From an uncultured Methanoregulaceae archaeon (GTDB lineage Archaea > Halobacteriota > Methanomicrobia > Methanomicrobiales > Methanospirillaceae): a stretch of DNA of 64,000 nt. The position numbers and the translations under genes are program-made. The stretch is from positions 800,001 to 864,000 of the forward strand of contig OY970061.1 in assembly GCA_963705255.1 (NCBI GenBank), given 5' to 3'. The notes beneath the pieces were generated by a model. That model was given only the letters and a program-made list of their open reading frames with translations, had not been told where the DNA came from and made no database searches. Within the stretch, counting starts at the first letter, position 1, and every line of letters starts with the position of its first letter. Below, piece by piece: positions 38,441 to 52,807 of the stretch.

Positions 38441-38912
38441 TGGGCGGGCGATCTCAGCCCGGATCGATATTCAGTATCAGCAACTCGGAAAAACATCGTT
38501 TTTCCTCAACGCTCGGGTCGGCCCGACCCTCACGTAAATGAAGGAAACCCCCTTTTCGGGGTCACACCCGGACGGGTTGCCGGGAACCGGAGGTGGTACC
38601 CCTCATGCACAAAGAGGGGTGGGGGGTGGGGTTGATCGAAAAGAGGATCCATTAGTTTCATGATTCGAACGCAGTTTGGTATAAATTATGCTAATGAGTT
38701 TATCCGGCAAGCAACTCTGACTGGAGTGCAAAAGTCAGATTTGAAATGTAAGGAGAAAATTTGAGCTAATTTGTAGTTTTAATTAATTAAAAATGAGAAC
38801 AAATCCTAAAAAAATCGAATGTCGGTCAATCCATTTTCAGATTCTTGATTTTTTATTGTATGACATTTTTATATTGTATTGGAAATTATCTTACTACAAG
38901 TGGGATTGAAAC

Positions 38913-40040
38913 ATGGGAGATATTGAGTACACTAAAGATTATGAAGGTATAGAAGATGAAGAAAGAGATGACATACCAATTGATTTTTGGGAGAGAAAAC
39001 AGCTTGAGTTAGTAACTAGTGTGGTAGATTACAATCTTGCGGGTCTTGCAGATTTAGTTAAAAAAAATAGTATTGATCGTATTGATCTCTCTCCAAAACA
39101 CCAAAGACGGTTACGATGGGATGATAAGCGACAGTCAAAACTTATTGAATCATTCTTAATGAATGTACCTGTTCCCCCAATTTTTCTCAATGAAGATTCA
39201 TACGGAAAATATTCAGTGATAGATGGAAAACAAAGACTTCTCACAATCTCAAAATTCTTTGAAAATGAGCTTGTTTTAACCGGGTTAAAAGTTTTTCAGG
39301 ATGTTAATGGAAAAACATTTTCTATACTTCCCACACGACTTCAAACGGTTCTAAGAACTCGTGTTACATTACGTTCAATAATTCTTTTGCGTCAATCCGA
39401 TCCAAAGATAAAATATGAAGTTTTTGAGCGACTGAATACAGGAGGAGTTAAACTAAATGCTCAAGAATTACGGAATAGTGTCTATCATGGGAAATTGAAT
39501 GATATGATATTAGAAATTTCAGAAAATAAAAAATTCCATCGTCTTTTAGGTATAAAAAACAAAGACCATTCTGCACTTTATCAAGAAATGAGAGATGCTG
39601 AATTAGTCTTGAGATATTTTACATATCGGAATAATTTAGACAGTTTTTCAAGTAAAATGCGACTAACGATGGATATATTTATGGAGCAGAATGTTAATCC
39701 TTCGGGAGAAGCATTAACAGAAATGAGAGAAGATTTTTTGAAAAACCTCGATATTGTTGAAGCTTGTTTTGGAGAATATGCATTTCAACGTTGGCAACCG
39801 GAATTGAAACGGTGGCGTAGATCGTTTTTAGCTTCTGCATATGACGCGCAGATGTTTGCTTGCAGAGAATTCTCTCTGGAAGATGTAAAAACAAAACGCA
39901 CTGAAATACTGAGTGGAGTGAAAAAGCTTTTCACAAATAAAGAGTTTAGGACAGCGATTGACGCTGCTACAAATACTCCCAGTTTCTTTAAAACAAGAAT
40001 TGATCTCATGAGAGAAATGATCGAAAATGTAATCCATTAA
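38913..40040 (+). CDS. DUF262 (GmrSD/ParB-like) domain protein
   Basis: QRRLRW, LIES..MNVPVPPI, VIDGKQRL, FERLNTGG..L..QELRN. Confidence 0.9.
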   Translation: MGDIEYTKDYEGIEDEERDDIPIDFWERKQLELVTSVVDYNLAGLADLVKKNSIDRIDLSPKHQRRLRWDDKRQSKLIESFLMNVPVPPIFLNEDSYGKYSVIDGKQRLLTISKFFENELVLTGLKVFQDVNGKTFSILPTRLQTVLRTRVTLRSIILLRQSDPKIKYEVFERLNTGGVKLNAQELRNSVYHGKLNDMILEISENKKFHRLLGIKNKDHSALYQEMRDAELVLRYFTYRNNLDSFSSKMRLTMDIFMEQNVNPSGEALTEMREDFLKNLDIVEACFGEYAFQRWQPELKRWRRSFLASAYDAQMFACREFSLEDVKTKRTEILSGVKKLFTNKEFRTAIDAATNTPSFFKTRIDLMREMIENVIH

Positions 40041-40050
40041 TAGGATAATT

Positions 40051-40761
40051 ATGGCAAAACCTTCGAAAGCCCTTATCGATTTTCAAAATTCTCTAAAGAT
40101 GGCAGAGGAACTGCAAATACGCGAAAGAAAATCTAATAAAAATGAGATTCCTCAGCCACAAGATGAAAATTTTGTTTATGGATTGCGCGGAGGTTCGATC
40201 GTTTTAATGGTGGGGGCATTTGAAAATTTTTTAGAGGATTTAGTTGAAGAAAAGTTGGATTATCTGAATCAACACCAAAACTATCGCCCTGATAAATTAC
40301 CTACGGATTTGATATATTATAATTGTAAATTAACATTCGAAAAATCAAAAGAGAAAACAAATGATTATCCTAATAATTTGGACAAAATTCCAATTTACAA
40401 AAAAGCAGCCTCTTTAATAAATGATGAAAAAATTGATCCGAAATTATTCCGTTTGTTGGCTGATAGTAATCCGAATCCCAAAAAAGTGAAATATTTATTC
40501 GTAAGCGTGGGTATTCCTGATATCTTTAAAACTATTAAACCAAAATTCGATAAAAAATGGAATAGAGGCAATCCAAGAACAGGGATTGATATTTCCCAAG
40601 AACTTGGAACACTTGTAGAACGCCGCCATGAAGTGGCGCATAAGGCCTATGTGATGGGATTTAGTCGAGATGATCTAAAAAGGTATATCAGATTTCTTCG
40701 GGTATTAGCTCCTGTACTAGACCAAGAGTTAAACTCACATATTCAAAAGATGGTGAAATAA
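40051..40761 (+). CDS. HEPN-domain putative RNase
   Basis: AFENFLED and RHEVAH (Rx4H) motif; directly after DUF262 gene. Confidence 0.75.
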   Translation: MAKPSKALIDFQNSLKMAEELQIRERKSNKNEIPQPQDENFVYGLRGGSIVLMVGAFENFLEDLVEEKLDYLNQHQNYRPDKLPTDLIYYNCKLTFEKSKEKTNDYPNNLDKIPIYKKAASLINDEKIDPKLFRLLADSNPNPKKVKYLFVSVGIPDIFKTIKPKFDKKWNRGNPRTGIDISQELGTLVERRHEVAHKAYVMGFSRDDLKRYIRFLRVLAPVLDQELNSHIQKMVK

Positions 40762-40807
40762 TTTTCACACTTCTTACGGAAAATTTACTTATTCAAAGAC
40801 GAAAACA

Positions 40808-41800
40808 GTGACTATGAGCAAAGCAGAATCTGATTTTAGTTTAATCGACACGACACAAACCAGGTTCTGTGACGGAGATATAGTAGTCCTTCGCACCAAG
40901 GAAGCATCCTTGGAAAAAAAGTTCGAAGCAAAAGTCAATGCTTGGAATCGTAGACCCGAAATTCTGAATACGGTCCATGAATTTTTCGAAGGGGATGCAA
41001 GGCTTATGGAAGGACTCGATTCTAACAAAAAAATTCACTTGGTTGTGACATCTCCGCCTTACTGGAACCTTAAAAAATATAGCGATAGCGGGGACGGTCT
41101 CCAACTAGGCCACATCGAATCTCGCGAGGAATTTCTTCACGAGCTTGGTAAAGTGTGGAAAAATTGTTTTGATCGACTTGTTCCGGGGGGACGAATGTGC
41201 GTCGTAGTTGGAGATGTATGCCGCTCACGCAAAAAGCATGGACGACACCTTGTTGATCCTCTGCACGCATACATTCAGGTCCAATGTCAAGAGATAGGAT
41301 TTGATCCACTTTCCCCAATAATCTGGAATAAAATTTCAAATGTGGTCACAGAAATGGAAGGAAATGGATCAACATTTCTCGGTAAACCATACGAGCCAAA
41401 TGGAATCGTAAAAAATGATATAGAATTTATTTTGCTTTTCCGGAAACCGGGCGGCTATCGTCATCCATCGCAGGATCAAAGGGATCTGAGTATGATTGAC
41501 CGGGAAGATCACGAGAAATGGTTCCAGCAGATCTGGACTGATATTCCGGGAGAGATCCAGAGGGCGCACCCGGCACCATTTCCTGTAGAGGTAGCCCGGA
41601 GATTGATCGGCATGTTCTCTTTTGTCGGGGATGTCGTTCTCGATCCTTTTGCCGGGACCGGGAATACAATCCAGGTCGCGATTAAAATGTACCGGAATTC
41701 AATCGGCATCGAATTAGAACCATCATACATGAGATATGCAGAAAAGCGCCTCAACGAAACACATACTCCGGTAATATTCCACTATAACGAAAGCAGGTAA
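40808..41800 (+). CDS. Beta-class N4-C/N6-A DNA methyltransferase
   Basis: TSPPY catalytic motif before DPFAGTG SAM motif. Confidence 0.92.
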   Translation: MTMSKAESDFSLIDTTQTRFCDGDIVVLRTKEASLEKKFEAKVNAWNRRPEILNTVHEFFEGDARLMEGLDSNKKIHLVVTSPPYWNLKKYSDSGDGLQLGHIESREEFLHELGKVWKNCFDRLVPGGRMCVVVGDVCRSRKKHGRHLVDPLHAYIQVQCQEIGFDPLSPIIWNKISNVVTEMEGNGSTFLGKPYEPNGIVKNDIEFILLFRKPGGYRHPSQDQRDLSMIDREDHEKWFQQIWTDIPGEIQRAHPAPFPVEVARRLIGMFSFVGDVVLDPFAGTGNTIQVAIKMYRNSIGIELEPSYMRYAEKRLNETHTPVIFHYNESR

Positions 41801-41801
41801 C

Positions 41802-42524
41802 ATGGCACCAAATCCCGTCAGCTTTTTACAACACCTTCAAACATTAGGCTATCATCCGAGATCGAATAAACATTCAAACGCTTTGGCAGAGACGATCATG
41901 GGCGACTTACTGAAATATTGCCCGAAGATTGCTTCAAAGGCATCCGCCGGTCAGTTAGTGTACGATCTGAATTTCAACATCACCGTTGGGACGGCAGACT
42001 GGAATATCGATCTGGTTATCGGCAGTGCTCCTCTTGGTATGAAGGCTCCAGAACCGGATATTCCCATTGTGAAAACTCCTCCTGCCCTTGTTCAGATAGC
42101 GATCGAGATCAAGTCTGTAATGACGGAGCATCGCAAGGCGGTGAAGAACCGGAAGAGGGATTTCGATGCACACCACGCCCACGTGCACCAGTATAATCCC
42201 CATTCCATCGCGGGCGGGATTCTTGTCTTGAATGCCTCGCCGAAATTCAAATCGCCGCTTCGGGATACTGAAACGATCCATAAGAACCCGGACAAACTTG
42301 TCGGTCACTGCCTCGACGAGTTCCGTGGCATCTCCTCAAGCGGCGGAACTATCGGGGTCGCGGGTCTCGATGCGAAGGGCGTAATCGTGGTGAATTGCGA
42401 TAATATTGTGCCGCCAAGAACCTGTTACGTCACAACAAAACCGGCGCCTGTTGTCGGCGATCCGATTCACTATGATGCATTTATTCAGAGTATCTGCGAT
42501 CTGTATACGGCCCGGTTTCCTTAA
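41802..42524 (+). CDS. Putative type II restriction endonuclease (PD-(D/E)xK)
   Basis: IDLVIG...IEIKS motif; abuts the MTase. Confidence 0.6.
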   Translation: MAPNPVSFLQHLQTLGYHPRSNKHSNALAETIMGDLLKYCPKIASKASAGQLVYDLNFNITVGTADWNIDLVIGSAPLGMKAPEPDIPIVKTPPALVQIAIEIKSVMTEHRKAVKNRKRDFDAHHAHVHQYNPHSIAGGILVLNASPKFKSPLRDTETIHKNPDKLVGHCLDEFRGISSSGGTIGVAGLDAKGVIVVNCDNIVPPRTCYVTTKPAPVVGDPIHYDAFIQSICDLYTARFP

Positions 42525-42733
42525 TGGGCGAATCTGGATTTTTTACTTATTATCGAGTATAATATCCTTAATCCCATAATTATCAAATCTTTTTTGAAGA
42601 ATGTCACGAGAATTAAAGCAATAATCCCCAAAAGCATCCATGAGACAAGCATAATGTTCAACAACGCCTGAAATCCACCGAAGGCCAAAATAAGACCAAC
42701 GTAGAAAAGAAGTTGTTTTAAATCTGAGTTCAT
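42521..42733 (-). CDS. Small two-TM membrane protein
   Basis: 70-aa hydrophobic ORF; GAGGTG upstream. Confidence 0.6.
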   Translation of the reverse strand: MNSDLKQLLFYVGLILAFGGFQALLNIMLVSWMLLGIIALILVTFFKKDLIIMGLRILYSIISKKSRFAH

Positions 42734-43132
42734 AGGAGATCACCTCAATCAATTTTTTTCCAGTCACAACTTTTTTTATCGAGAGGGCACGGTGGCAATC
42801 TGTCCGTATCCTGATCGAGATAGATAATTTCTCCTGTTTCAACCGATTCATAGTGTCCTTTTCCCGGTTTTGTTCCGCACTTGAATGACATTTATTTCCA
42901 CCTTGAGGTCCCAGTGAGAACCTCAGATAATTATCCTATTATGCAGCGAACAAAAGAGTATCAGCAAGTGTTGTGAAAGTGTTACAGTTAGATATTTTTT
43001 ATTTTAGCGAGAATTCTAAATTCGAATGTATTCAGTTAAAACCAGATGTTAAAAATATTGGAAATTCTGACGTGAAAAAACGTCATGAGAATATTGAAGT
43101 AGTTCTCTTATCCATATTAAATAATAAATTCT

Positions 43133-44197
43133 ATGATTTTTATGACGGACATTCCAGAATTAATTGAGGTAATCAATGAAATGGATGCCGATGCTGATAC
43201 AATAGAAAATGAGATGAGCCATCTCTTTTCATCATTAGCCATTGTAGAAAAACCTAATCTTTCTGAAAAAAATGATGAAAGTATTCAAAAAATTCTTTTT
43301 CGTCCATCACTACCCACATATGTCCCTACTCGCGATAAATGGGAGGAACCGAATAAAGAACTATCAGAATATCATCGATATATAATCAAACACTATGAAA
43401 AATGGTATAATCAGGCATTATTCCTTATTCGCGAATATAACAAATCTTCAGAAGTAGAATTCATTGAATTGCATAACGGTAAAAGAGAAAGTTATACCGG
43501 TCCAGACACTTACCGAGACTCACCAGTTCCGGTAACAAAAATGATTACGGTGTATTATGGAATTTCTGAATTATTACAATTTAATGAAAAAATCAAAGGT
43601 ACTTATGAACCTCAAAAATTAATCAAGACTACTACAAATTTATTTTCAAAACAACGCGCATCACTTCTTGCATTACCGGATATTGTAAAAATGTCAAAGA
43701 AATCAAATTCTGTGATTCCCAATTCAATGCCCAATAAGAAGGAAGTATTCATTGTTCATGGCCATGATGAAGAATTAAAACAATCAGTCGCTAGATTTAT
43801 TGAAAAAATTGATTTGAAACCGATAATTTTACATGAACAACCAAATCAAAACAGACATTTGCTCCAAAAATTAAAAGATTATAGCGATGTCGGATACGCA
43901 ATCGTCTTGCTTACTCCGGACGATATGGGAATATCTAAACAGGATTTTGATGAAAAAAATATTGTTCTAAATTTTCAATCAAGGGCCCGTCAAAATGTGA
44001 TTTTAGAATTAGGTTTCTTTTTGGGTCTACTGAAAGAACAGCGGATTTGTGCTATCAATAAAGGTGTTAAAGATATTCCGTCAGATTATCACGGAATTAC
44101 ATTTATTGAATATGATAAAGAAGGAGCGTGGAAAATGAAAATCGCAAAAGAATTAGATTCTGTAGGTTATGTAATAGATTTTAAAAATGTTATATAA
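43133..44197 (+). CDS. Protein with C-terminal TIR-like (CAP12/Pycsar-type) domain
   Basis: VFIVHGHD, ILHEQ, AIVLLTPDD, RARQNVILELGFF, PSDYHG. Confidence 0.88.
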   Translation: MIFMTDIPELIEVINEMDADADTIENEMSHLFSSLAIVEKPNLSEKNDESIQKILFRPSLPTYVPTRDKWEEPNKELSEYHRYIIKHYEKWYNQALFLIREYNKSSEVEFIELHNGKRESYTGPDTYRDSPVPVTKMITVYYGISELLQFNEKIKGTYEPQKLIKTTTNLFSKQRASLLALPDIVKMSKKSNSVIPNSMPNKKEVFIVHGHDEELKQSVARFIEKIDLKPIILHEQPNQNRHLLQKLKDYSDVGYAIVLLTPDDMGISKQDFDEKNIVLNFQSRARQNVILELGFFLGLLKEQRICAINKGVKDIPSDYHGITFIEYDKEGAWKMKIAKELDSVGYVIDFKNVI

Positions 44198-44287
44198 TAG
44201 AAAATTGCATTTTCCTCCTACATTCGCCCATTTCATATTCGCATTTCTCCTTGGTAAGCGCACCGTGCTACTCATTAGCACACACGC

Positions 44288-44294
44288 TTAAATA
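44288..44294 (+). promoter_or_regulatory. TATA box of aromatic operon leader
   Basis: TTAAATA ending 22 nt before ATG 44317. Confidence 0.6.
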
Positions 44295-44341
44295 CAAACA
44301 CACCAAACAATAAACCATGCAGAACGAGTGCCACCGCATTC

Positions 44342-44503
44342 ATGAGGGTTTTTTTGCCCGTGAATGTCTTTATCTCCGTTAGAACACCCGCCCGCTGCAT
44401 CAGTGAGATCGTTTCTGAACTTGTCGTGAATGCCGGTACGTCCGCGTATCGCTTCTTCGGCTTTTTTGGCTTTTATTACCGGTTTTATTACTGGTATCAG
44501 TAA
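44342..44503 (+). CDS. Putative aromatic-amino-acid leader peptide (start uncertain: 44317, 44342 or 44426)
   Basis: MRVFLPVNVFISVRTPARCISEIVSELVVNAGTSAYRFFGFFGFYYRFYYWYQ*; 6 Phe, 6 Tyr, 1 Trp in last 18 codons. Confidence 0.75.
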   Translation: MRVFLPVNVFISVRTPARCISEIVSELVVNAGTSAYRFFGFFGFYYRFYYWYQ

Positions 44504-44561
44504 ACCCTCTGGTTCCGCATAAAAAATCCGTGTGTGAATGCAGGGGGAGGTTGTTGTTGTT

Positions 44562-45353
44562 ATGAGAGGAAAGGAAATTCGTCTGGAAAGAATCATGAAC
44601 CGGAACACGAGGAAGACGGTCATCGTGCCGATGGACCACGGGGTCACGAATGGGCCGATCCCGGGGCTGATCGACCTGTCGCAGGCCGTGAACCTGGTGG
44701 CCGAGGGCGGGGCGAACGCGGTGATCGGGCACATGGGGCTCGCCCTCCACGGCCACCGGCAGAGCGGGCGGGACGTGGGGCTGATCCTCCACCTGTCCGC
44801 GAGCACGTCGGTAGGGCCGGACCCGAACAACAAGGTCCTCGTGAACTCGGTGACGAACGCCCTGAAGATGGGGGCGGACGCGGTATCGATGCACGTGAAC
44901 ATCGGGGCGGAGTCGGAGGCGGCGATGCTCCAGGACCTCGGGAAGGTCGCGGTGGAATGCATGGAGTGGGGGATGCCGCTCCTCGCCATGATGTACCCGA
45001 GGGGGAAGAAGATCGCGAAGGATAACGACGTGGAGATGGTCAAGCTCGCCGCCCGGGTGGCAGCGGAGCTCGGCGCCGACATCGTCAAGACGGTGTACAC
45101 CGGCGACCCGGAGTCCTTCCGGGAGGTGACCCGGGGGTGCCCGGTGCCGGTGGTCGTTGCCGGAGGTTCAAAGACCGATGACCGCACAACCCTTGAGCTG
45201 ATAGAAGGGGCGATGGCGGGAGGGGCGGCCGGGATCTCCATCGGCCGGAACGCCTTCCAGCACAAGCACCCGGCGAAGTTCGTCCGGGCAGCGGCCTGTA
45301 TCGTACACAAGAACATGAGCGTTGACGAAGCATTGAAAATTCTGAAGGTGTGA
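44562..45353 (+). CDS. ADH synthase / archaeal class I aldolase family (AroA'-like), copy 1
   Basis: [23 protein letters not shown]; GGAGG upstream. Confidence 0.9.
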
Positions 45354-46141
45354 AGATGATTGGAAAGGAGATCAGGATCGAACGGATCATGAACCGGAAC
45401 ACAGGAAGGTCGGTCATCGTGCCGATGGACCACGGGTTCTCGATGGGACAGATTGAAGGACTGCTGGACATGACGAAGGTCATCTCGGACGTGAGCGAAG
45501 GGGGCGCGAACGCCATCGTGCTCCACAAGGGGCTCGTCAAGCGCGGCCACCGGAAGCACGGCCGCGACATCGGCCTCATCATCCACCTCTCGGGGTCCAC
45601 CTCGCTCAACCCGGACCCGAACGACAAGGTGCAGGTCTGCACCGTGGAGGAGGCGATAGCCCTCGGCGCGGACGCGGTCTCGATCCACATCAACCTCGGC
45701 TCGCCCAACGAGTCCAAGATGCTGGAGATCGGCGCCGGCGTGGCAAAGGACTGCATGCGCTGGGGGATGCCGCTCCTGACCATGTGCTACCCGCGGGGCA
45801 AGGGGATCGACTCCTTCTCCCCGCAGTCGGTGGGCCACGCGGTCCGGGTCGCCGAGGAGCTCGGCGCGGACATGATCAAGACCAACTACCCGGGAGATGC
45901 AGAATCCTTCCGGAAGATCGTGAAGGCCTGCTCGGTTCCCGTCTTCATTGCCGGCGGCGAGAAGACCGGCGACCTCGAGTCCCTGAAGATCATCCGCGAC
46001 TCGGTGAAGGTCGGCGGCGCAGGGGTCTGCGTGGGGAGGAACTCCTTCCAGCGCGAGGACACCACGGCGTTTGTCAAAGCCCTCTGTGCGGTCGTCCACG
46101 ACAAAACGGACCCGGAGAAGGCGCTGGGGAAGAAGAGATGA
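45350..46141 (+). CDS. ADH synthase / DKFP-forming class I aldolase family, copy 2
   Basis: Paralog of upstream gene, IVPMDHG, GADMIKT. Confidence 0.9.
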
Positions 46142-46553
46142 TACGGTCGATCACAAAGCTCGATGCCGGCACATCCATGAAGACGAAAAAGTGGGTCTGT
46201 GGAAAAACCAATAAAACCCTCAAGTGGGATTGCGATGAAGCCACGGGTGCTCGCCGCCTCGTCGGGGCTCGCCCCGTGGAGCATGGCCGCAGAAGGGACC
46301 CGTGGGAAAAAAAATTTAAAAATGGGGGTCAAGGGGGTTTGCCCCCTTGGGCTGCCTCGAAGAACCTTTTGGGTTCTTCTCCTTCTTCACGGTCCTTATG
46401 GACCGTTCAGACTCCCCCTCTGGGGACCGACCGCAGGGAGGTCGCAGAAGAACGCATGAGCGTTCTTCGAGGAGAGAGGGGGTCACCCTCACAAATTCCA
46501 CTGAACGTTTCTGAAAAGACAGAGATGAAACAACAGCAAAACAGGGGGCTGCA

Positions 46554-47540
46554 ATGAAGCAGTTCTGGGTCGACATCCGCCCCTGGAACAAGGAGGTCGC
46601 GACCACGGCCATCGAGAGCGGTGCCGACGCGCTGGTCGTCGACCGGGCGGAGGACGTGCGGCGGCTCGGGAGGATCACGACCATCGCCCCCGACGGGGAC
46701 CTGAAGCCCGGCTCCGATATCGCGGAGTGCACCATTACCGACAAGGAGAGTGAGAACGCCGCCGCCCGGATCGGGAAGGGGAAGAAGGTGATCGTCACCA
46801 CGTCCGACTGGACCGTCATCCCGCTCGAGAACCTCGTCGCCCAGTCCGACCAGATCATCGCGACGGTAAAGAGCGTAAAGGAGGCGGAACTCGCCCTGCA
46901 CGTCCTTGAGAAAGGGGTGTACGGCATCCTCCTGAAGACATCCGATCCCGCCGTCGTACGATCGGTGGCGGCCCTCGTGAAGGGGGCGAGCGCCACGGTC
47001 GGCCTCGTCCCGTTCACGGTCACGAAGATCCGGCAGGTCGGCATGGGCGACCGCGTCTGCGTGGACACCTGCTCCATGCTCTCCGACGGGGAAGGCATGC
47101 TGATGGGGAACACCTCGTCGGCGATGCTCCTCGTGCACGCCGAGACGCTCGAGAACCCGTACGTGGCCCCCCGCCCGTTCCGGGTGAACGCCGGGGCGGT
47201 GCACGCCTACATCCTGATGCCCGACGGCAAGACCGCGTACCTCTCCGACCTGGCGATTGGCGGGCAGGTCCTCGTCTCCGACGCGAAGGGCTCCGCCCAC
47301 ACGGCGGTCATCGGGCGGACCAAGATAGAGCGCCGCCCCCTCCTCCTCGTAGAGGCCGAAGCAGGAACAGCAAAGGTGAGCCTGATTCTCCAGAACGCCG
47401 AGACCATCCGCCTCGTCGGCGAGGACGGGAAGGCGATCTCGGTCGTGAACCTCGCAACCGGCGATACGATACTCGGCTGCGTGCTCGAGGGCGGCAGGCA
47501 TTTCGGGATGGCCGTCAAAGAGACTATCCGCGAGAAATGA
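46554..47540 (+). CDS. 3-dehydroquinate synthase II (archaeal AroB')
   Basis: WTVIPLENL, GDRVCVDTCS, RPFRVNAG, LQNAET. Confidence 0.95.
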   Translation: MKQFWVDIRPWNKEVATTAIESGADALVVDRAEDVRRLGRITTIAPDGDLKPGSDIAECTITDKESENAAARIGKGKKVIVTTSDWTVIPLENLVAQSDQIIATVKSVKEAELALHVLEKGVYGILLKTSDPAVVRSVAALVKGASATVGLVPFTVTKIRQVGMGDRVCVDTCSMLSDGEGMLMGNTSSAMLLVHAETLENPYVAPRPFRVNAGAVHAYILMPDGKTAYLSDLAIGGQVLVSDAKGSAHTAVIGRTKIERRPLLLVEAEAGTAKVSLILQNAETIRLVGEDGKAISVVNLATGDTILGCVLEGGRHFGMAVKETIREK

Positions 47541-48367
47541 CCATGAAGGCAGGCATCATCGGCGGGACCGGCAGGATGGGCAGGCTCTTTGCCCCGGTCT
47601 TCGAACGTGCGGGCTACGAGGTCCTCGTCTCCGGGCGGACAACGGCACTGACCAGTGCAGAGCTGGCAGAGCGCTGCGAGCTCGTCATCGTCTCGGTCCC
47701 TATCCATGACACGGTCAGGGTGATCGACGAGATAGCCCCGCTCCTCACCGCTGACCAGCTCCTCTGCGATCTCACGTCCCTCAAAGTAAAGCCAGTCGGG
47801 GCGATGCTCACATCAAAAGCCAGTGTTATCGGGCTCCACCCGATGTTCGGGCCTACGGTCAGCTCCCTGCACCACCAGACCATCATCGTCTGCCCGGCCC
47901 GGGCCAGAGACGAAGAACTCCAGTCACTCCTCTCCATCTTCCGGGCGGAGGGAGCGGACTGCACCATCACGACCCCGGAGGAGCATGACCGGATGATGGC
48001 CGTAGTCCAGGGGCTCACCCATTATGTCACGCTCTGCATGGCGGACACGGTCCGCAGGCTCGGCGTGGATATAGAAAAGACCCTCACGTTCACCAGCCCG
48101 GTCTACCAGATCGAGCTCTCGCTGGTCGGCAGGCTCCTCTCCCAGGACCCGGCGCTCTATGCCGACATCCTCCAGCAGAACCCGTTCGTGCCCGGCGTCC
48201 TGGCGGCCTGCCGGGATTCGGCTGCCGAGCTCTCGTCCATAGTCGGTTCCCGCGATCCCGCACTCTTCCGGAAGTTTTTCGAACAGGACAGCCGGCATCT
48301 CGGCGCATACTGTGACGAGGGGCAGGCGATCACCGATGCCCTTATCGAGTGCATGGTGAACCGATGA
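47537..48367 (+). CDS. tyrA: Prephenate dehydrogenase
   Basis: IGGTGRMG, DLTSLK, HPMFGP, EHDRMMA.VQ. Confidence 0.93.
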   Translation: MTMKAGIIGGTGRMGRLFAPVFERAGYEVLVSGRTTALTSAELAERCELVIVSVPIHDTVRVIDEIAPLLTADQLLCDLTSLKVKPVGAMLTSKASVIGLHPMFGPTVSSLHHQTIIVCPARARDEELQSLLSIFRAEGADCTITTPEEHDRMMAVVQGLTHYVTLCMADTVRRLGVDIEKTLTFTSPVYQIELSLVGRLLSQDPALYADILQQNPFVPGVLAACRDSAAELSSIVGSRDPALFRKFFEQDSRHLGAYCDEGQAITDALIECMVNR

Positions 48368-49158
48368 CCGTCATAACGCTGGGACCGGAAGGGACGTTCT
48401 CCCACGAGCTCACCCTGAAGATGGGCTACTCCGGGACGGTCACCCTCCTCCCGACCATCCACCGGATCATGGATGCAGTCGCGCGCGGGGAAGGGGACGG
48501 GATCGTGCCCATGGAAAATTCCGAGGCAGGCAGCGTCGGGGAGACCCTCGACGGCCTCTCCCGCTACCCCCTCTTCATCACGGCCGAGATGTACATGCCG
48601 GTCCACCACAACCTCGCGTCGCTCGTCCCGCTGGAGAAGATCCGGGTGATCTACGCCCATCCGCAGACCCACGAGCAGTGCAGCGAATATATCGAGAAGT
48701 GGGGCGTCCCGGTCATCCATACCAGCAGCAACGCCTCCAGTGCCCTCGAGGCAAAGAAGACGCCCAATGCCGGCGCGATACTCTCGGCTTCCGCAGCCGC
48801 GCTCTACCGGATCCCGGTCATCGTTAAGGACACCGAGAACAACCTCTCGAACACGACGCGGTTTGTCCGGATCTCCCCAACTCCTGCCGGAGATGGCCAC
48901 CCGGAAAAATGCAGCATCTTCATCGACCCGAGCACGGACCGGGCCGGGCTGCTCCACGACCTCCTTGAGGCCTTCGCTTCCCGGGGGATCAACCTGACCC
49001 GGATCGAGTCGAGGCCGTCGAGGCGGGGCATAGGGAACTACGTCTTCTTCCTCGATTATGCCTGGTCTCCCCGGACCGGGGATGCCCTCGAGGAACTCCG
49101 GGGGATCACCACGGTCAAGGAGCTCGGCTGTTACCGGAAAATCGGGGTCCCGCCATGA
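48364..49158 (+). CDS. pheA: Prephenate dehydratase with ACT domain
   Basis: LGPEGTFS, PMENS, NTTRF, IESRP. Confidence 0.95.
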   Translation: MTVITLGPEGTFSHELTLKMGYSGTVTLLPTIHRIMDAVARGEGDGIVPMENSEAGSVGETLDGLSRYPLFITAEMYMPVHHNLASLVPLEKIRVIYAHPQTHEQCSEYIEKWGVPVIHTSSNASSALEAKKTPNAGAILSASAAALYRIPVIVKDTENNLSNTTRFVRISPTPAGDGHPEKCSIFIDPSTDRAGLLHDLLEAFASRGINLTRIESRPSRRGIGNYVFFLDYAWSPRTGDALEELRGITTVKELGCYRKIGVPP

Positions 49159-50420
49159 GGATTACCATCCCGCGTTCGGGAAGCGTAGACCTGCAGTTCG
49201 AGGCACCCCCCTCGAAAAGTTTCACGCACCGGGCGCTGATCGCCGGGGCCCTCGCTTCCGGTACGACAACGGCCATAAACCCGCTCGAATCAGAGGACAC
49301 CCTCCTCACGCTGGCCGCTCTTCAGAAACTGGGTGTCGACGCCCGGCAGGAGACCGGCCGTATTGTCCTCCACGGGTGTGACGGGGAACTTCCTGCGGCC
49401 GGACCGGTAACCCTTGAGCTCGGCAACTCCGGCACGAGCCTCCGCCTCATGGCATCCCTCGCCCTGCTCTGCCGCTACCCGCTGACCCTCACCGGGAGCG
49501 CCCGCATGCAGGAACGGCCGATCGGGCCGCTCGCGGAAGCGCTCTCATCCATCGGGGGTTCCGTAAAATTCTTACAGAGGAGCGGCTATCCCCCTCTCGA
49601 GGTGAGCGGCCATCTCCGGGGCGGCAGGGTCAGCATCGACGGCTCGGTCAGCAGCCAGTTCATCTCGTCCATCCTGATTGCGGCTCCCTACGCGGAGACC
49701 GAGGTGGAGATCCATATCCCCTCGCCTCCCGCATCGGCGTCCTACCTCGATATCACCCTGAGCGTCATGGAAGGTTTCGGCGCACGGGTCGCCCGTGAAG
49801 GGTATGAACAGTTCACGGTCAGCACCCGGAACCGGTACGCCGGGCGGACCTATGCAGTCGAGGGCGACTATTCGTCTGCCTCCTACTTCTTTGCCCTTGC
49901 CGCTATCTGCGGGGGGAAGGTCACGGTACATAACCTTGTCCCGGACTCCGTGCAGGGCGACCGCAGGTTCCTCCCGGCGCTTCAGGAGATGGGGTGCACG
50001 GTGACGTATCCGGAGAACGCCGTCTCCGTAGAACGGACCGGGGAGCTCCGGGGGATCACCATCGACATGTCATCGTCTCCCGATACCGTGCAGACCCTCT
50101 GCATGGTCGCAGCGACCGCGACAACGCCCACGACCATCAGCGGCATCGGTCATTTGAAGTTCAAGGAGAGCGACCGTATTTCCGGTACAGCTGAACGGCT
50201 CCGGGCCCTCGGGGGCAGGGTGGACGTCGGCGGCGACCGCATCACCATCCGCCCCTCGGTCCTTCACGGGGGCGTCATCGACCCGGCCAACGACCACCGC
50301 ATGGCGATGTCCTTCGCGGTGCTCGGGCTCGGGATCGGGGGGATCACCATCACGAATGCCGAATGCGTCAGCAAATCGTTCCCGGGATTCTGGGAGAGCC
50401 TGAGCGGGGTCATCCCGTGA
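49155..50420 (+). CDS. aroA: EPSP synthase
   Basis: SKS.THR, GNSGT, SSQF, KESDR, DHRMAM. Confidence 0.96.
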   Translation: MRITIPRSGSVDLQFEAPPSKSFTHRALIAGALASGTTTAINPLESEDTLLTLAALQKLGVDARQETGRIVLHGCDGELPAAGPVTLELGNSGTSLRLMASLALLCRYPLTLTGSARMQERPIGPLAEALSSIGGSVKFLQRSGYPPLEVSGHLRGGRVSIDGSVSSQFISSILIAAPYAETEVEIHIPSPPASASYLDITLSVMEGFGARVAREGYEQFTVSTRNRYAGRTYAVEGDYSSASYFFALAAICGGKVTVHNLVPDSVQGDRRFLPALQEMGCTVTYPENAVSVERTGELRGITIDMSSSPDTVQTLCMVAATATTPTTISGIGHLKFKESDRISGTAERLRALGGRVDVGGDRITIRPSVLHGGVIDPANDHRMAMSFAVLGLGIGGITITNAECVSKSFPGFWESLSGVIP

Positions 50421-51809
50421 GGAGGATTGGTACTGACCGGGTTCCGGGGCACCGGAAAGACCGAGATCGGGAAGATCCTCGCCCTGCAGAACACGGTGCA
50501 GTTTTTCGACACGGACTCCCTCATCGAGCTTGCGACCGGCCGCTCCATCCCGGACATCTTCCACGAGGACGGCGAGGAACGCTTCCGGAACATCGAGCGC
50601 GAGGTCATCGCCACCCTCCCGCCCGCGGATGCCGTGGTCAGTACCGGTGGCGGGGCGGTCGTGGACCCGGCCAACATGGAACGCCTCCGGCGGGACAGCA
50701 TCATGGTCCTCCTCTTTGCGGATATCGACACCATCGAGAAGAGGCTCGAAAACGCCCCCCGCCCGCCGCTCACCGGCCTCCCCCTGAGGGAAGAGATCGC
50801 CGAGATAATGGACCGGCGCAGGCACCGGTATTACGCCTCTGCCGACCTCTGCATCGATACCAGCGAGACCACGCCGGCCGATGCTGCCGGAACGATCAGC
50901 GCCCTCCTGCGGGGCGGTGTCCCGGCGGCGGCTTCCCGGAAGGAGGCCCTTGCTTTTTTCCGGGGAGGACGGATCCCGGGGCCGTCGATGCGCCGGCTCG
51001 AACAGGTCCTGAACGACCCGCCGGACGACCCCCTGACACGGATACTCGGGGTTGCCGGGTATCCCTGCGCCCACAGCAGGGGGCCGTACCTCTTCAACGC
51101 CCTCTTCAGCCGGTTCGGGCTCAACTGCCAGTACACATGGTTCGAGGACCCGGATATCGGAAAGATAATGCGGCTCGCGCGGGATCTCGATGTGAAAGGG
51201 CTCTCGGTGACCATCCCGTTCAAGCAGGACGTGATGAACCACCTCGACGAGATCGACGAACATGCCGCACGGCCGATCGGCGCGGTGAACACGGTGGTCT
51301 TTGCCTGCGGGTCGTCTGTCGGGCACAACACCGACTGGCTCGGCATCCGGAAGCCGCTGGTCTCCCTGAAAGGGTCAAGGGCCGTCCTGCTCGGTGCGGG
51401 CGGGGCCGCCGCGGCCGCGGCCTATGCACTCGTGGACCTCGGGATGGACACAACCGTCCTGAACCGTACCCCGCAGAAGGCGAAAGATCTTGCAGAACGG
51501 GCCGGATGCCGCTGGGCCGGGTGGGACTCGTTCGACGACCTGCGGCCTGACCTTGTCGTGAACGCGACCCCGCTGGGGATGGCGCCGGACTTAAGAAGCC
51601 CGCTGAACGAGGACCAGCTCTACCCGGAACTGACGGTCTTTGACCTGGTCTATACCCCGCCGCTCACGCCGCTCCTCGAAGCGGCACAGCGGAAGGGCTG
51701 CAGGACCATCAGCGGCACCGAGATGTTTATCGAACAGGCGAGAGAGCAGTTCTACCTCTTCTTCGGGATCGATGTCCCGTCGGAGACCATCAGGAAGTAT
51801 CTCACATGA
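50417..51809 (+). CDS. aroE: Fused shikimate kinase (AroK-type) - shikimate dehydrogenase
   Basis: GFRGTGKT, GEERFR, GGG then SVTIPFK, GAVNT, NTDW, GAGGAA; start probably GTG 50417 with 1-nt indel. Confidence 0.88.
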
Positions 51810-52807
51810 ACACCTTTGGCAGGAATTTCCGTATCACCACGTTTGGCGAGAGCCACGGTGCCGCAGTCGGTGTCATCATCGACGGGTGCCCCCCGGGAAC
51901 CCCGCTGGCTGAGAGCGATATCCAGCCGTTCCTCGACAGGCGCCGCCCGGGCACCTCCCCGCTGGTCTCCGCGAGGCAGGAAACCGACACCGTCAGCATC
52001 CTCTCGGGGGTCTTTGAAGGAACGACGACCGGCACTCCCATCGCCCTTGTCGTGAAGAACGAGGATGAGCAGCCGAAGGATTACGAAGAACTGCGGTCCC
52101 TGTTCCGCCCGGGCCATGCCGACTTCACCTACCTGCAGAAGTATGGCATCCGGGACCACCGGGGCGGGGGCCGGAGTTCCGGGCGGGAGACGGTCGGGCG
52201 CGTGGTTGCCGGCGCGGTTGCCATGAAATTCCTTGGCAGCAGGGGGATACGGATCTCAGGGAAGATTCTCGAGGTACACGGCAGGTCGGGTGCGGAGGGG
52301 ATCGAACAGGAAATCCTTGCCGCGAAACAGGCCGGGGATTCGGTAGGGGGCATCGCGGAGATCACTGCTGCCGGCTGTCCCCCGGGGCTCGGCGACCCGG
52401 TCTTTTCCAAGCTGGACGCGCAGATTGCGGGCGCCATGATGGGCATCGGGGCGGTGAAGGGAGTCGAGATCGGCGACGGTTTCTCTGCGGCCCGGAGATT
52501 CGGGAGCGAGAACAACGACCCGATCACCCGTGCGGGGTTTGCGAGCAACCATGCGGGCGGGATCCTTGGCGGGATCTCCACGGGGCAGGACATTGTCGTG
52601 CGCATCGCGGTAAAACCGACTCCCTCGATCGCAAAGCCCCAGCAGACGACCGACATTCACGGGAACGACGCGACGATCTCGATCAGGGGGCGGCACGACC
52701 CCTGCATCGTCCCCCGGATCCTCCCCGTTGCCGAGGCGATGCTCGCGCTGGTGCTGGTCGATTGTATGCTGGAACAGGAGAAGTACCGGCAGGGCCAATC
52801 ACCATGA
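51806..52807 (+). CDS. aroC: Chorismate synthase
   Basis: GESHG, RPGHAD, GGRSSGRET, GRHDPC. Confidence 0.97.
   Translation: MNTFGRNFRITTFGESHGAAVGVIIDGCPPGTPLAESDIQPFLDRRRPGTSPLVSARQETDTVSILSGVFEGTTTGTPIALVVKNEDEQPKDYEELRSLFRPGHADFTYLQKYGIRDHRGGGRSSGRETVGRVVAGAVAMKFLGSRGIRISGKILEVHGRSGAEGIEQEILAAKQAGDSVGGIAEITAAGCPPGLGDPVFSKLDAQIAGAMMGIGAVKGVEIGDGFSAARRFGSENNDPITRAGFASNHAGGILGGISTGQDIVVRIAVKPTPSIAKPQQTTDIHGNDATISIRGRHDPCIVPRILPVAEAMLALVLVDCMLEQEKYRQGQSP

Follow-up and report, generated by a model that had tools for sequence, protein, structure and literature searches.

Do archaea, as bacteria do, let a ribosome read a short leader peptide in order to gauge their supply of an amino acid? The question is raised by a 64,000-nucleotide stretch (the window) from an uncultured Methanoregulaceae archaeon (GenBank assembly GCA_963705255.1, contig OY970061.1, positions 800,001 to 864,000 of the forward strand), in which a short open reading frame (ORF) rich in aromatic codons precedes an operon for aromatic amino acid synthesis. 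All coordinates without another label are positions in this window. Ribosome-read leader peptides are the textbook bacterial gauge of amino acid supply, and a preliminary description of this DNA had proposed that the ORF is a ribosome-mediated attenuator. The observation behind that proposal is confirmed and highly non-random, and the leader looks like a ribosome-based amino acid gauge of the kind so far established only in bacteria. Our best reading is a ribosome-stalling sensor of aromatic aminoacyl-tRNA that would act on translation initiation, premature termination or both; comparative evidence supports the input of such a sensor well, and the output step not. The elements at the centre of the argument are as follows.

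44342-44503, + strand: leader ORF (ORF-B), with an ATG start, 53 amino acids (MRVFLPVNVFISVRTPARCISEIVSELVVNAGTSAYRFFGFFGFYYRFYYWYQ) and a TAA stop at 44501-44503.
44447-44497, + strand: aromatic-codon run (YRFFGFFGFYYRFYYWY), with 13 aromatic codons and T6, T4 and T4 tracts; it includes the proposed hairpin HP4.
44562-52807, + strand: aro operon of eight genes, with NCBIfam matches above or near the family cut-offs.

Translation of 44342-44503 bears out the reported composition, as the last 18 residues (YRFFGFFGFYYRFYYWYQ) comprise 6 Phe, 6 Tyr and 1 Trp encoded by mixed synonymous codons. The reported gap of 58 nt between the leader stop and the operon is likewise correct, with the ATG of the first gene, an ADH synthase gene, at 44562. 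A six-frame count over the 2,600,650-nt genome gives 46 loci with an 18-codon window that is free of stops and has 9 or more aromatic codons. Of these, the leader locus alone reaches 12 to 13; the next has 11 and the others have at most 10. The preliminary description had proposed asking how often windows with at least 13 of 18 aromatic codons occur, and the leader ranks at the top of the whole genome. The most aromatic reading window of the genome is therefore located directly before the aromatic operon, on the same strand.

The same arrangement recurs in relatives. Our sample of homologues consists of 110 loci around ADH synthase genes, 103 of them with at least 250 nt of upstream sequence. 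Every one of the 103 carries, no more than 260 nt upstream of the ADH synthase gene, a stop-free 12-codon segment with 5 to 10 aromatic codons (6 to 10 in 102 loci, 5 in one), which ends at a stop codon 33 to 127 nt before the gene. The peptides encoded by the run diverge yet stay aromatic (...FFGFFSFYYRFYYWY, ...GYRVFAFYFSRFSQYFWYR, ...AVFYRFFWYF, ...IYRYFNWFSQF, ...GFFFRYFYLF, ...AFFGFYRFFSYA). The run recurs, with 5 to 9 aromatic codons in 12, in nine of nine further Methanomicrobiales genomes, which belong to the Methanoregula family and to two of the remaining five. Named strains that carry it are Methanoculleus formosensis, sediminis, methanifontis and chikugoensis and Methanospirillum stamsii. 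Judged by these loci, the leader is conserved across six families of the order Methanomicrobiales, and the run that the preliminary description proposed to look for before orthologous operons is kept throughout with a variable peptide. In other families of the phylum, no comparable run precedes the ADH synthase homologue at the 30 evaluable of 31 loci (3 to 7 aromatic codons in 12, position not fixed). Two genomes of one family of the same phylum (L141 and L152, family f16) have GT-rich ORFs whose products are rich in F, V, W, C and G before ADH synthase homologues, with 6 to 7 aromatic codons in 12 and stops 21 and 71 nt ahead of the gene.

We evaluated whether the frame itself is maintained by using a 15-nt motif near the 5' end of the leader (GTGAATGTCTTTATC, 44360-44374), which is identifiable in 98 of the 103 loci. 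Measured from this motif, the aromatic frame reaches its stop after a whole number of codons in 94 of the 98 loci, with 22 different lengths between 35 and 84 codons. In each of the four exceptions the run begins in frame and then shifts, and three of them come from one long-read series of metagenome-assembled genomes, so assembly error is possible. As an internal control, the distance from the leader stop to the ADH synthase ATG shows no such periodicity, leaving remainders of 0, 1 and 2 modulo three in 33, 25 and 23 of 81 unique loci. Over the last 20 codons of 78 unique runs, aromatic codons make up a fraction of 0.49 in frame, whereas the two alternative frames give 0.11 and 0.21 and shuffles that keep base composition give 0.18 ± 0.08. 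A frame kept over 22 lengths, an aperiodic spacer and an in-frame aromatic enrichment together provide strong evidence that ribosomes read the frame from at least the GTGAATGTCTTTATC motif to the stop. Frame conservation in relatives, whose absence had been named in advance as grounds for discarding the proposal, is thus present.

The same numbers bear on the possibility that the ORF arose by chance in T-rich promoter-proximal DNA. The region is indeed T-rich and lies at the edge of a low-GC island. However, chance would have to account for a frame kept through 22 lengths, an aromatic fraction well above that of the shuffles, conservation in six families and the top aromatic rank in the genome, and we give this explanation hardly any credence.

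Codon choice within the run differs sharply from that of the neighboring genes. In the runs of 81 unique leaders TTT outnumbers TTC by 275 to 119 (70% TTT), versus 40 to 210 (16% TTT) in the adjacent ADH synthase genes, and TAT outnumbers TAC by 285 to 63 (82% TAT), versus 44 to 156 (22% TAT). The window's own operon has 16 TTT and 58 TTC, and 15 TAT and 31 TAC. Non-aromatic codons end in T in only 24% of cases in the runs, compared with 13% in the genes (examples from the runs are AGT 19/AGC 53 and GGT 38/GGC 83), and the UUU/UAU bias is therefore specific to the aromatic codons. This bias fits selection for wobble-read, presumably slower codons, which would sharpen a stalling sensor. It fits selection for U tracts as well: tracts of at least four U (U4+) number 2.35 per run versus 0.68 expected with gene-like codon choice, and 77 of the 81 runs have at least one and 64 at least two.

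The preliminary description had the leader sensing Phe, Tyr and Trp. The run and its UUU/UAU bias agree with sensing of Phe and Tyr; sensing of Trp is doubtful. A Trp codon is present in 58 of 78 runs, and in Methanoregula this TGG codon sits in the 3' arm of the proposed HP4. The trp operon (genome positions 2180792-2187207, minus strand) has no Trp-rich leader, as the 31-codon ORF upstream of it contains no Trp. Elsewhere in the genome, a scan for cognate upstream ORFs enriched in one amino acid found none, with low power given that its crude gene calls missed the aro leader; the three candidates inspected all precede unrelated genes. Within the trp operon (G000:C1:2180792-2185104), trpA matches Pfam Trp_syntA in two frames and trpD is split into two ORFs. 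These splits reflect either homopolymer errors of the assembly or decaying genes, and they call for caution on the exact lengths of T runs in the assembly.

The run and its stop codon are accompanied by RNA hairpins and by the Shine-Dalgarno (SD) sequence of the first gene, which the best reading needs for an output.

44435-44450, + strand: hairpin HP3 (GGTACG-TCCG-CGTATC), whose 3' arm includes the first aromatic codon of the run.
44477-44482 with 44491-44496, + strand: proposed hairpin HP4 inside the run, TACCGG with CTGGTA; 75.3% of cells are paired.
44505-44547, + strand: hairpin HP5, which starts 1 nt past the stop; basal helix CCCTCTG/CAGGGGG, with a 3' arm that reaches into the SD.
44546-44551, + strand: SD core GGAGGT of the ADH synthase gene, with its first two G inside HP5.

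A hairpin starts between -3 and +6 nt from the leader stop in 78 of 79 unique spacers, and the 3' arm of HP5 overlaps the best SD match, as scored with an assumed anti-SD sequence, in 65 of the 79. Its basal helix occurs in 58 distinct complementary versions (for example UCCCUUCA/UGAAGGGG, CUCAGCAG/CUGCUGAG, GACACCA/UGGUGUC and UCCAUGG/CCAUGGA). Cognate arms pair at -16.8 kcal/mol versus -13.9 kcal/mol for permuted arms, and none of 2,000 permutations was as low. A stop-adjacent hairpin is predicted in 76 of 79 spacers versus 46% of dinucleotide shuffles (mean z -1.86). This pattern of compensated helices indicates that HP5 is under selection. In HP3, five of the six pairs are changed on both sides among 43 Methanoregula-type sequences. 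Because the hairpin abutting the stop usually holds part of the SD, it points to translation rather than termination. The ORF, its conserved frame, its codon bias, the hairpin and the SD overlap are all direct observations.

HP5 also varies between lineages. In Methanospirillum (L238, which is Methanospirillum stamsii Pt1, and L212) only 33 nt separate the leader stop from the ATG, and the stop hairpin pairs AUCACUC with GAGUGAU, so that the SD itself forms the 3' arm. No other version of HP5 shows an anti-SD:SD pairing so clearly, and the 5' arm AUCACUC presumably mimics the end of 16S rRNA. In four sequences of the Methanoregula lineage (L016, L018, L067 and L077), about 70 nt rich in GTTGATTG repeats are inserted between HP5 and a new SD. 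There the hairpin remains at the leader stop, and the old G-rich arm is no longer used as an SD.

How might such a leader report on aromatic amino acids? We infer that it is translated, that ribosomes stall on it, which way it responds and that stalling is coupled to HP5. In the mechanism we propose, the 5' leader of the aro mRNA would carry a translated upstream ORF whose last approximately 20 codons are about half Phe/Tyr(/Trp). When charged tRNA-Phe or tRNA-Tyr is short, ribosomes would dwell on the run; when both are plentiful, the ribosome would reach the stop and leave. HP5, with its 3' arm in the SD, would keep the start region closed at a predicted opening cost of about 7 kcal/mol, and ribosomes held or queued on the last codons of the run would loosen it and permit initiation at the first gene. 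Coupling of termination to translation is known in archaea, and poor translation of the first gene could by this route also lower the level of operon mRNA. We think it likely that the leader is a ribosome-read aromatic sensor with some output; that the output is translational, through HP5 and reinforced by polarity, is a tentative proposal to which we give somewhat less than an even chance.

In modeling, a ribosome near the stop freed the start region to a small degree. Without a ribosome, opening the translation initiation region costs 7.05 kcal/mol; with the A site of a ribosome placed 2 to 4 codons before the stop, the mean cost falls by 0.7 kcal/mol, and the fall exceeds 1.5 kcal/mol in 16 to 20 of 74 sequences.

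Several results weigh against the best reading. Ribosomes stalled anywhere in the first three quarters of the run leave the opening energy as it is. When ribosomes were masked at ten positions in the 74 sequences, the unpaired fraction of the SD was 0.26 to 0.31; only a ribosome on the last sense codon or on the stop raised it to 0.34. By ribosome geometry, a ribosome at the last aromatic codon only abuts HP5, and in variants with a TGA stop even the terminating ribosome barely enters it. The simplest form of coupling also has the wrong sign: were HP5 opened by the ribosome that terminates at the stop, abundant aromatic amino acids would raise expression. HP5 lacks SD contact in 14 of 79 spacers, all of long-spacer lineages (e.g., L016, L031 and L076), and it still stands at the stop in these, which links it with the ORF's end and not with the SD. 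The leader ORF itself is without an SD, scoring -3.1 kcal/mol versus -2.3 for the control and -9.2 for the ADH synthase gene. Its start codon occupies a fixed place in 98 of 98 loci (ATG in 41, GTG in 57), and the alternation of the two could be explained equally well by pairing in HP2, the hairpin that holds it. Finally, a rough scan of 69 further loci found at least 6 aromatic codons in 12 at 56 of them and fewer at 13.

Other ways of connecting the run to the first gene fared less well. Unmasking of the SD by ribosomes early in the run was rejected, as it had no effect in either masking or opening energy. The run itself could act as the anti-SD, in the mycobacterial manner, only if it paired downstream, and it does so little: its pairing averages 0.24 with itself, 0.09 with the spacer and 0.05 with the gene start. 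Pairing of a C-rich block (44386-44400) with the SD is strong (-21 kcal/mol, -24.6 in the window), but as an alternative anti-SD the block is unsupported, since cognate pairs are no better than permuted ones (P = 0.36) in a test whose power is low because the SD hardly varies. Read-through by frameshifting into an ATGA overlap fits the window, where the -1 frame from the run ends at a TGA that overlaps the ADH synthase ATG. It was rejected as a general mechanism because it does not fit the family: of 81 unique loci, 50 have a stop ahead of the ATG in the -1 frame and 54 in the +1 frame.

The attenuator proposed in the preliminary description thus stands in part. A conserved, frame-kept ORF, an aromatic run and the UUU/UAU bias speak for it, and its classical form is not supported. 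We found no terminator-like site (a hairpin with a U run) in 44100-44700, and HP5 is followed by GGAGGTTGTTGTTGTT, not a U run; a U tract past the hairpin is present only in some lineages. There is no Rfam family match at E ≤ 10 in 44150-44700, nor was a tRNA or a bacterial-type promoter found at the leader region. No mutually exclusive set of hairpins was detected, as RNAalifold gives only separate hairpins. The leader therefore lacks two defining marks of a classical attenuator, a terminator and membership in a curated RNA family.

Without a bacterial terminator, a sensor would have to use steps specific to archaea: SD unmasking, termination by aCPSF1/FttA, leaderless initiation or possibly frameshifting. 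The second of these would place the output in the U4+ tracts of the run itself. Under this explanation, the tracts, which are the terminator signal of archaea, would be bound by aCPSF1/FttA and end transcription unless a stalled ribosome hid them, a logic like that of tnaC and Rho. With charged tRNAs at hand the ribosome would clear the run, the naked tracts would terminate or cleave the transcript and the operon would be off, with HP5 keeping the remaining spacer structured. In Methanococcus maripaludis, aCPSF1 binds U4 tracts with an affinity that rises with their number and sets the efficacy of termination (PMC8716108; here and below, cited statements follow excerpts of the sources). The excess of U4+ tracts over expectation and their presence in nearly every run agree with this model, as do the T6, T4 and T4 tracts of the window's run and the position of HP5 at the stop even where the SD is uncovered. 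It would also explain why there is an aromatic leader and yet no Trp leader at the trp operon. On the other hand, TAT (82%) is favored above TTT (70%) although TAT alone does not lengthen U runs, and the other codons of the run are not enriched in U. Moreover, FttA is described as acting directly on RNA at the polymerase exit, so a stalled, uncoupled ribosome should favor termination rather than prevent it (PMC11616081, as excerpted). We consider U-tract termination unlikely.

The 5' end of the leader contains further conserved structure, including a second, overlapping ORF.

44317-44382, + strand: ORF-A, a 21-codon mini-ORF (MQNECHRIHEGFFARECLYLR) that overlaps the leader ORF's first 13 codons and lies in the -1 frame to it.
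44317-44400, + strand: structured 5' domain with P1, HP1, HP2 and the motif GTGAATGTCTTTATC, predicted with RNAalifold.
44317-44322 with 44395-44400, + strand: P1, ATGCAG with CTGCAT, in which a conserved TGCAT block pairs with the very start of the predicted transcript.
44326-44341, + strand: HP1, near the leader start codon.
~44344-44362, + strand: HP2, with a U-run loop, which holds the leader start codon.

In Methanoregula, 81.7% of cells at the paired positions of the hairpins are paired, versus 36.7 to 51.9% with slid partners, and 45 cells are changed on both sides versus 21.2 ± 3.3 in shuffles. The domain is unique in the genome according to nhmmer (E = 4.7e-12, next match E = 1.9), and a repeated operator was rejected as an account of the 5' motif on account of this single copy. 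All 84 unique 5' regions contain the ATG of ORF-A, and the ORF has 21 codons in Methanoregula and 15 in most other families. ORF-A ends at position +17 or +20, counted from the anchor motif GTGAATGTCTTTATC, in 70 of the 84; TAG (47), TGA (21) and TAA (16) all serve as its stop, while the leader-frame residues at this place vary. A site common to both frames reads YUU-UUY in 32 of 32 variants, after GAGGG or GGUGA, with an ORF-A-frame stop 6 to 8 codons past it in 70 of 84 regions.

A slippery YUU-U with an SD-like element upstream and a stop nearby is the layout of prfB-type +1 frameshifting. This raises a different possibility, a two-ORF sensor gated by frameshifting: ribosomes would start leaderless at the ATG of ORF-A, and a hungry Phe codon at YUU-UUY (in the region 44349-44355) would cause a +1 slip. 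Phe limitation would thereby send ribosomes into the frame of the aromatic run, to be held beside HP5, and otherwise they would stop at the end of ORF-A. The start of ORF-A follows a TATA-like box by 22 to 25 nt in 74 of 84 promoters. ORF-A is always in the -1 frame, its start preceding that of the leader ORF by 25, 7, 16, 28 or 19 nt, all 1 modulo 3. The kept stop position with three stop codons in use, the invariance of YUU-UUY, and the want of an SD before the leader ORF, whose GTG is just 7 nt from the ATG in the families outside Methanoregula, are of a piece with such gating. Frameshifting on Phe runs has also been reported for E. coli pheL (PMC3082878, as excerpted). Against it, all 98 loci give the leader frame an ATG or GTG of its own in a fixed position, the U run is also the loop of a conserved hairpin and so needs no slippage to be conserved, and only two length classes between the starts, equivalent to one indel event, are weak evidence for a kept frame. 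We assign frameshift gating little probability.

The last rival dispenses with sensing by ribosomes altogether and concerns the promoter, where two features adjoin.

44263-44280, no strand assigned: palindrome CCGTGCTA-N5-TAGCAC, which abuts the TATA-like box and is conserved in the Methanoregula alignment; a candidate transcription factor site.
44288-44295, + strand: TATA-like box, TTAAATAC / CTTAAATA, an A/T 8-mer.

Of 84 unique promoters, 74 place this A/T 8-mer 22 to 25 nt ahead of the conserved ATG (44317 in the window), and the usual archaeal TATA spacing puts that ATG at or beside the predicted transcript start. The form TGCTA-N3-7-TAGCA has one other copy in the genome (G000:C1:1083173-1083190, L163 ~1498-1515), with the same CCG prefix. 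It is located between a TATA-like box and a gene for a LivJ-like ABC substrate-binding lipoprotein, which is divergent from LivG/LivF-like ATPase genes. The palindrome is a candidate operator of a regulator common to aromatic synthesis and an amino acid transporter. Such a protein may act alongside the leader, by analogy with Tar in Thermococcus (PMC6737238, in the part drawn on here).

If regulation depended entirely on a palindrome-bound protein, on the 5' RNA domain with a ligand or protein bound to it, or on both, the ORF could be merely open, be a coupling upstream ORF that aids ribosome loading, or encode a small protein with an aromatic tail. The second palindrome at an amino acid ABC transporter promoter and the covarying 5' domain, unique in the genome, are compatible with this, and modeling showed no clear ribosome-dependent RNA switch. 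The regulators of archaeal aromatic operons described in the excerpts of PMC6737238 are also DNA-binding proteins, with palindromes upstream of the B recognition element (BRE) and TATA box. However, a non-sensing ORF leaves unexplained why the composition of the tail and not its sequence is conserved, why the UUU/UAU bias is confined to aromatic codons and why the most aromatic window of the genome lies at an aromatic operon. A small functional protein also finds no match in a family search, in which neither the leader ORF nor ORF-A hit a protein family, and the names among 15 related protein clusters are all "hypothetical protein." We therefore regard the absence of sensing as distinctly unlikely.

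The reading of the leader as a stalling sensor can be placed among known systems. Like pheL-pheA, trpL, hisL, leuL and thrL, it is a short ORF before a biosynthetic operon with a run of end-product codons near its 3' end, and as in the enterobacterial attenuators, RNA hairpins flank the run and the stop codon. Unlike pheL and trpL, it shows no GC hairpin with a U-run terminator, no Rfam match and no 1:2/2:3/3:4 alternative pairing. It also differs in its length of 45 to 55 codons versus 14 to 30, in its setting of archaeal polymerase and termination factors, and in a post-stop hairpin that holds the SD. In the control of E. coli tna by tnaC, a ribosome that halts where this leader ORF ends can hide a termination factor (Rho) site beside the stop, tnaC sensing free Trp through its nascent peptide and inducing a catabolic operon. 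Here, by contrast, the factor would be aCPSF1/FttA and the signal uncharged tRNA.

The closest counterpart in content is aroR-aroF of Corynebacterium glutamicum, a mixed Phe/Tyr leader ahead of the gene for the enzyme that opens the common aromatic pathway (Neshat et al. 2014, as summarized in the excerpt of PMC11802643). Unlike the archaeal leader, it is a bacterial transcription attenuator with a single Phe-Tyr-Phe triplet and a reported response to Phe and not Tyr (PMC11802643). A working precedent for translational attenuation by runs of amino acid codons is provided by the leaderless polycysteine short ORFs of mycobacteria, which share with our leader a codon run in a short upstream ORF, an SD-hiding structure and possibly a leaderless mRNA; in those, however, the Cys codons pair with the SD region, whereas here the strand that pairs with the SD lies past the stop (10.1101/834739, in excerpt). 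The ermCL and cat leaders similarly sequester a downstream SD in a hairpin, and an arrested leader ribosome changes their hairpins, but they rely on arrest by a drug and the nascent peptide and on a four-segment switch of which we found no equivalent (10.1101/834739).

In the literature searched, control of aromatic amino acid operons in archaea is attributed solely to the DNA-binding proteins TrpY of Methanothermobacter and Tar of Thermococcus, which differ in kind from a translated leader; the candidate site at 44263-44280 resembles the Tar arrangement of a palindrome upstream of BRE/TATA (PMC6737238, in excerpt). Our full-text search of the literature returned no archaeal leader-peptide attenuator in the passages it retrieved. 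If the sensor is real, an order-wide aromatic leader in methanogens would mean that archaea use translation itself as a metabolite sensor. A small natural element of this sort makes archaeal transcription-translation-termination coupling, a long-open question, testable. It could also provide a native amino acid-responsive switch for methanogen engineering, already carried by cultured Methanoculleus and Methanospirillum strains. The frameshift-gated alternative, if true, would be a programmed frameshift serving as an amino acid gauge in an archaeon.

The operon that follows the leader was said in the preliminary description to make chorismate, Phe and Tyr, and its NCBIfam names agree, covering the archaeal chorismate route and the Phe and Tyr branches.

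44562-45353 and 45350-46141, + strand: two ADH synthase paralogues.
46554-47540, + strand: 3-dehydroquinate synthase II.
47537-48367, + strand: prephenate dehydrogenase (tyrA).
48349-49158, + strand: prephenate dehydratase (pheA).
49155-50420, + strand: EPSP synthase (aroA).
50427-51809, + strand: shikimate kinase-shikimate dehydrogenase fusion (aroK-aroE).
51806-52807, + strand: chorismate synthase (aroC).

A 412-nt gap (46142-46553) separates the second ADH synthase gene from that for dehydroquinate synthase II and contains four or five consecutive near-perfect hairpins, for example CAAGGGGGTTTGCCCCCTTG, GAAGAACCTTTTGGGTTCTTC, CGGTCCTTATGGACCG and GAAGAACGCATGAGCGTTCTTC. This array may represent a repeat element; alternatively, the operon may be regulated or processed internally at this place.

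On the other side of the leader, a low-GC island (~38900-44200, 28 to 45% GC versus 60 to 70% in the operon) ends exactly at the aro promoter. The window aligns with genomes of the same genus only from ~44261 onward, indicating that the native regulatory region starts there and that the island looks like an insertion beside the leader. Models of the CBASS Cap12 NAD+ hydrolase match the C-terminal part of the island's last gene (43133-44197) weakly (E = 9e-9, far under the cut-off).

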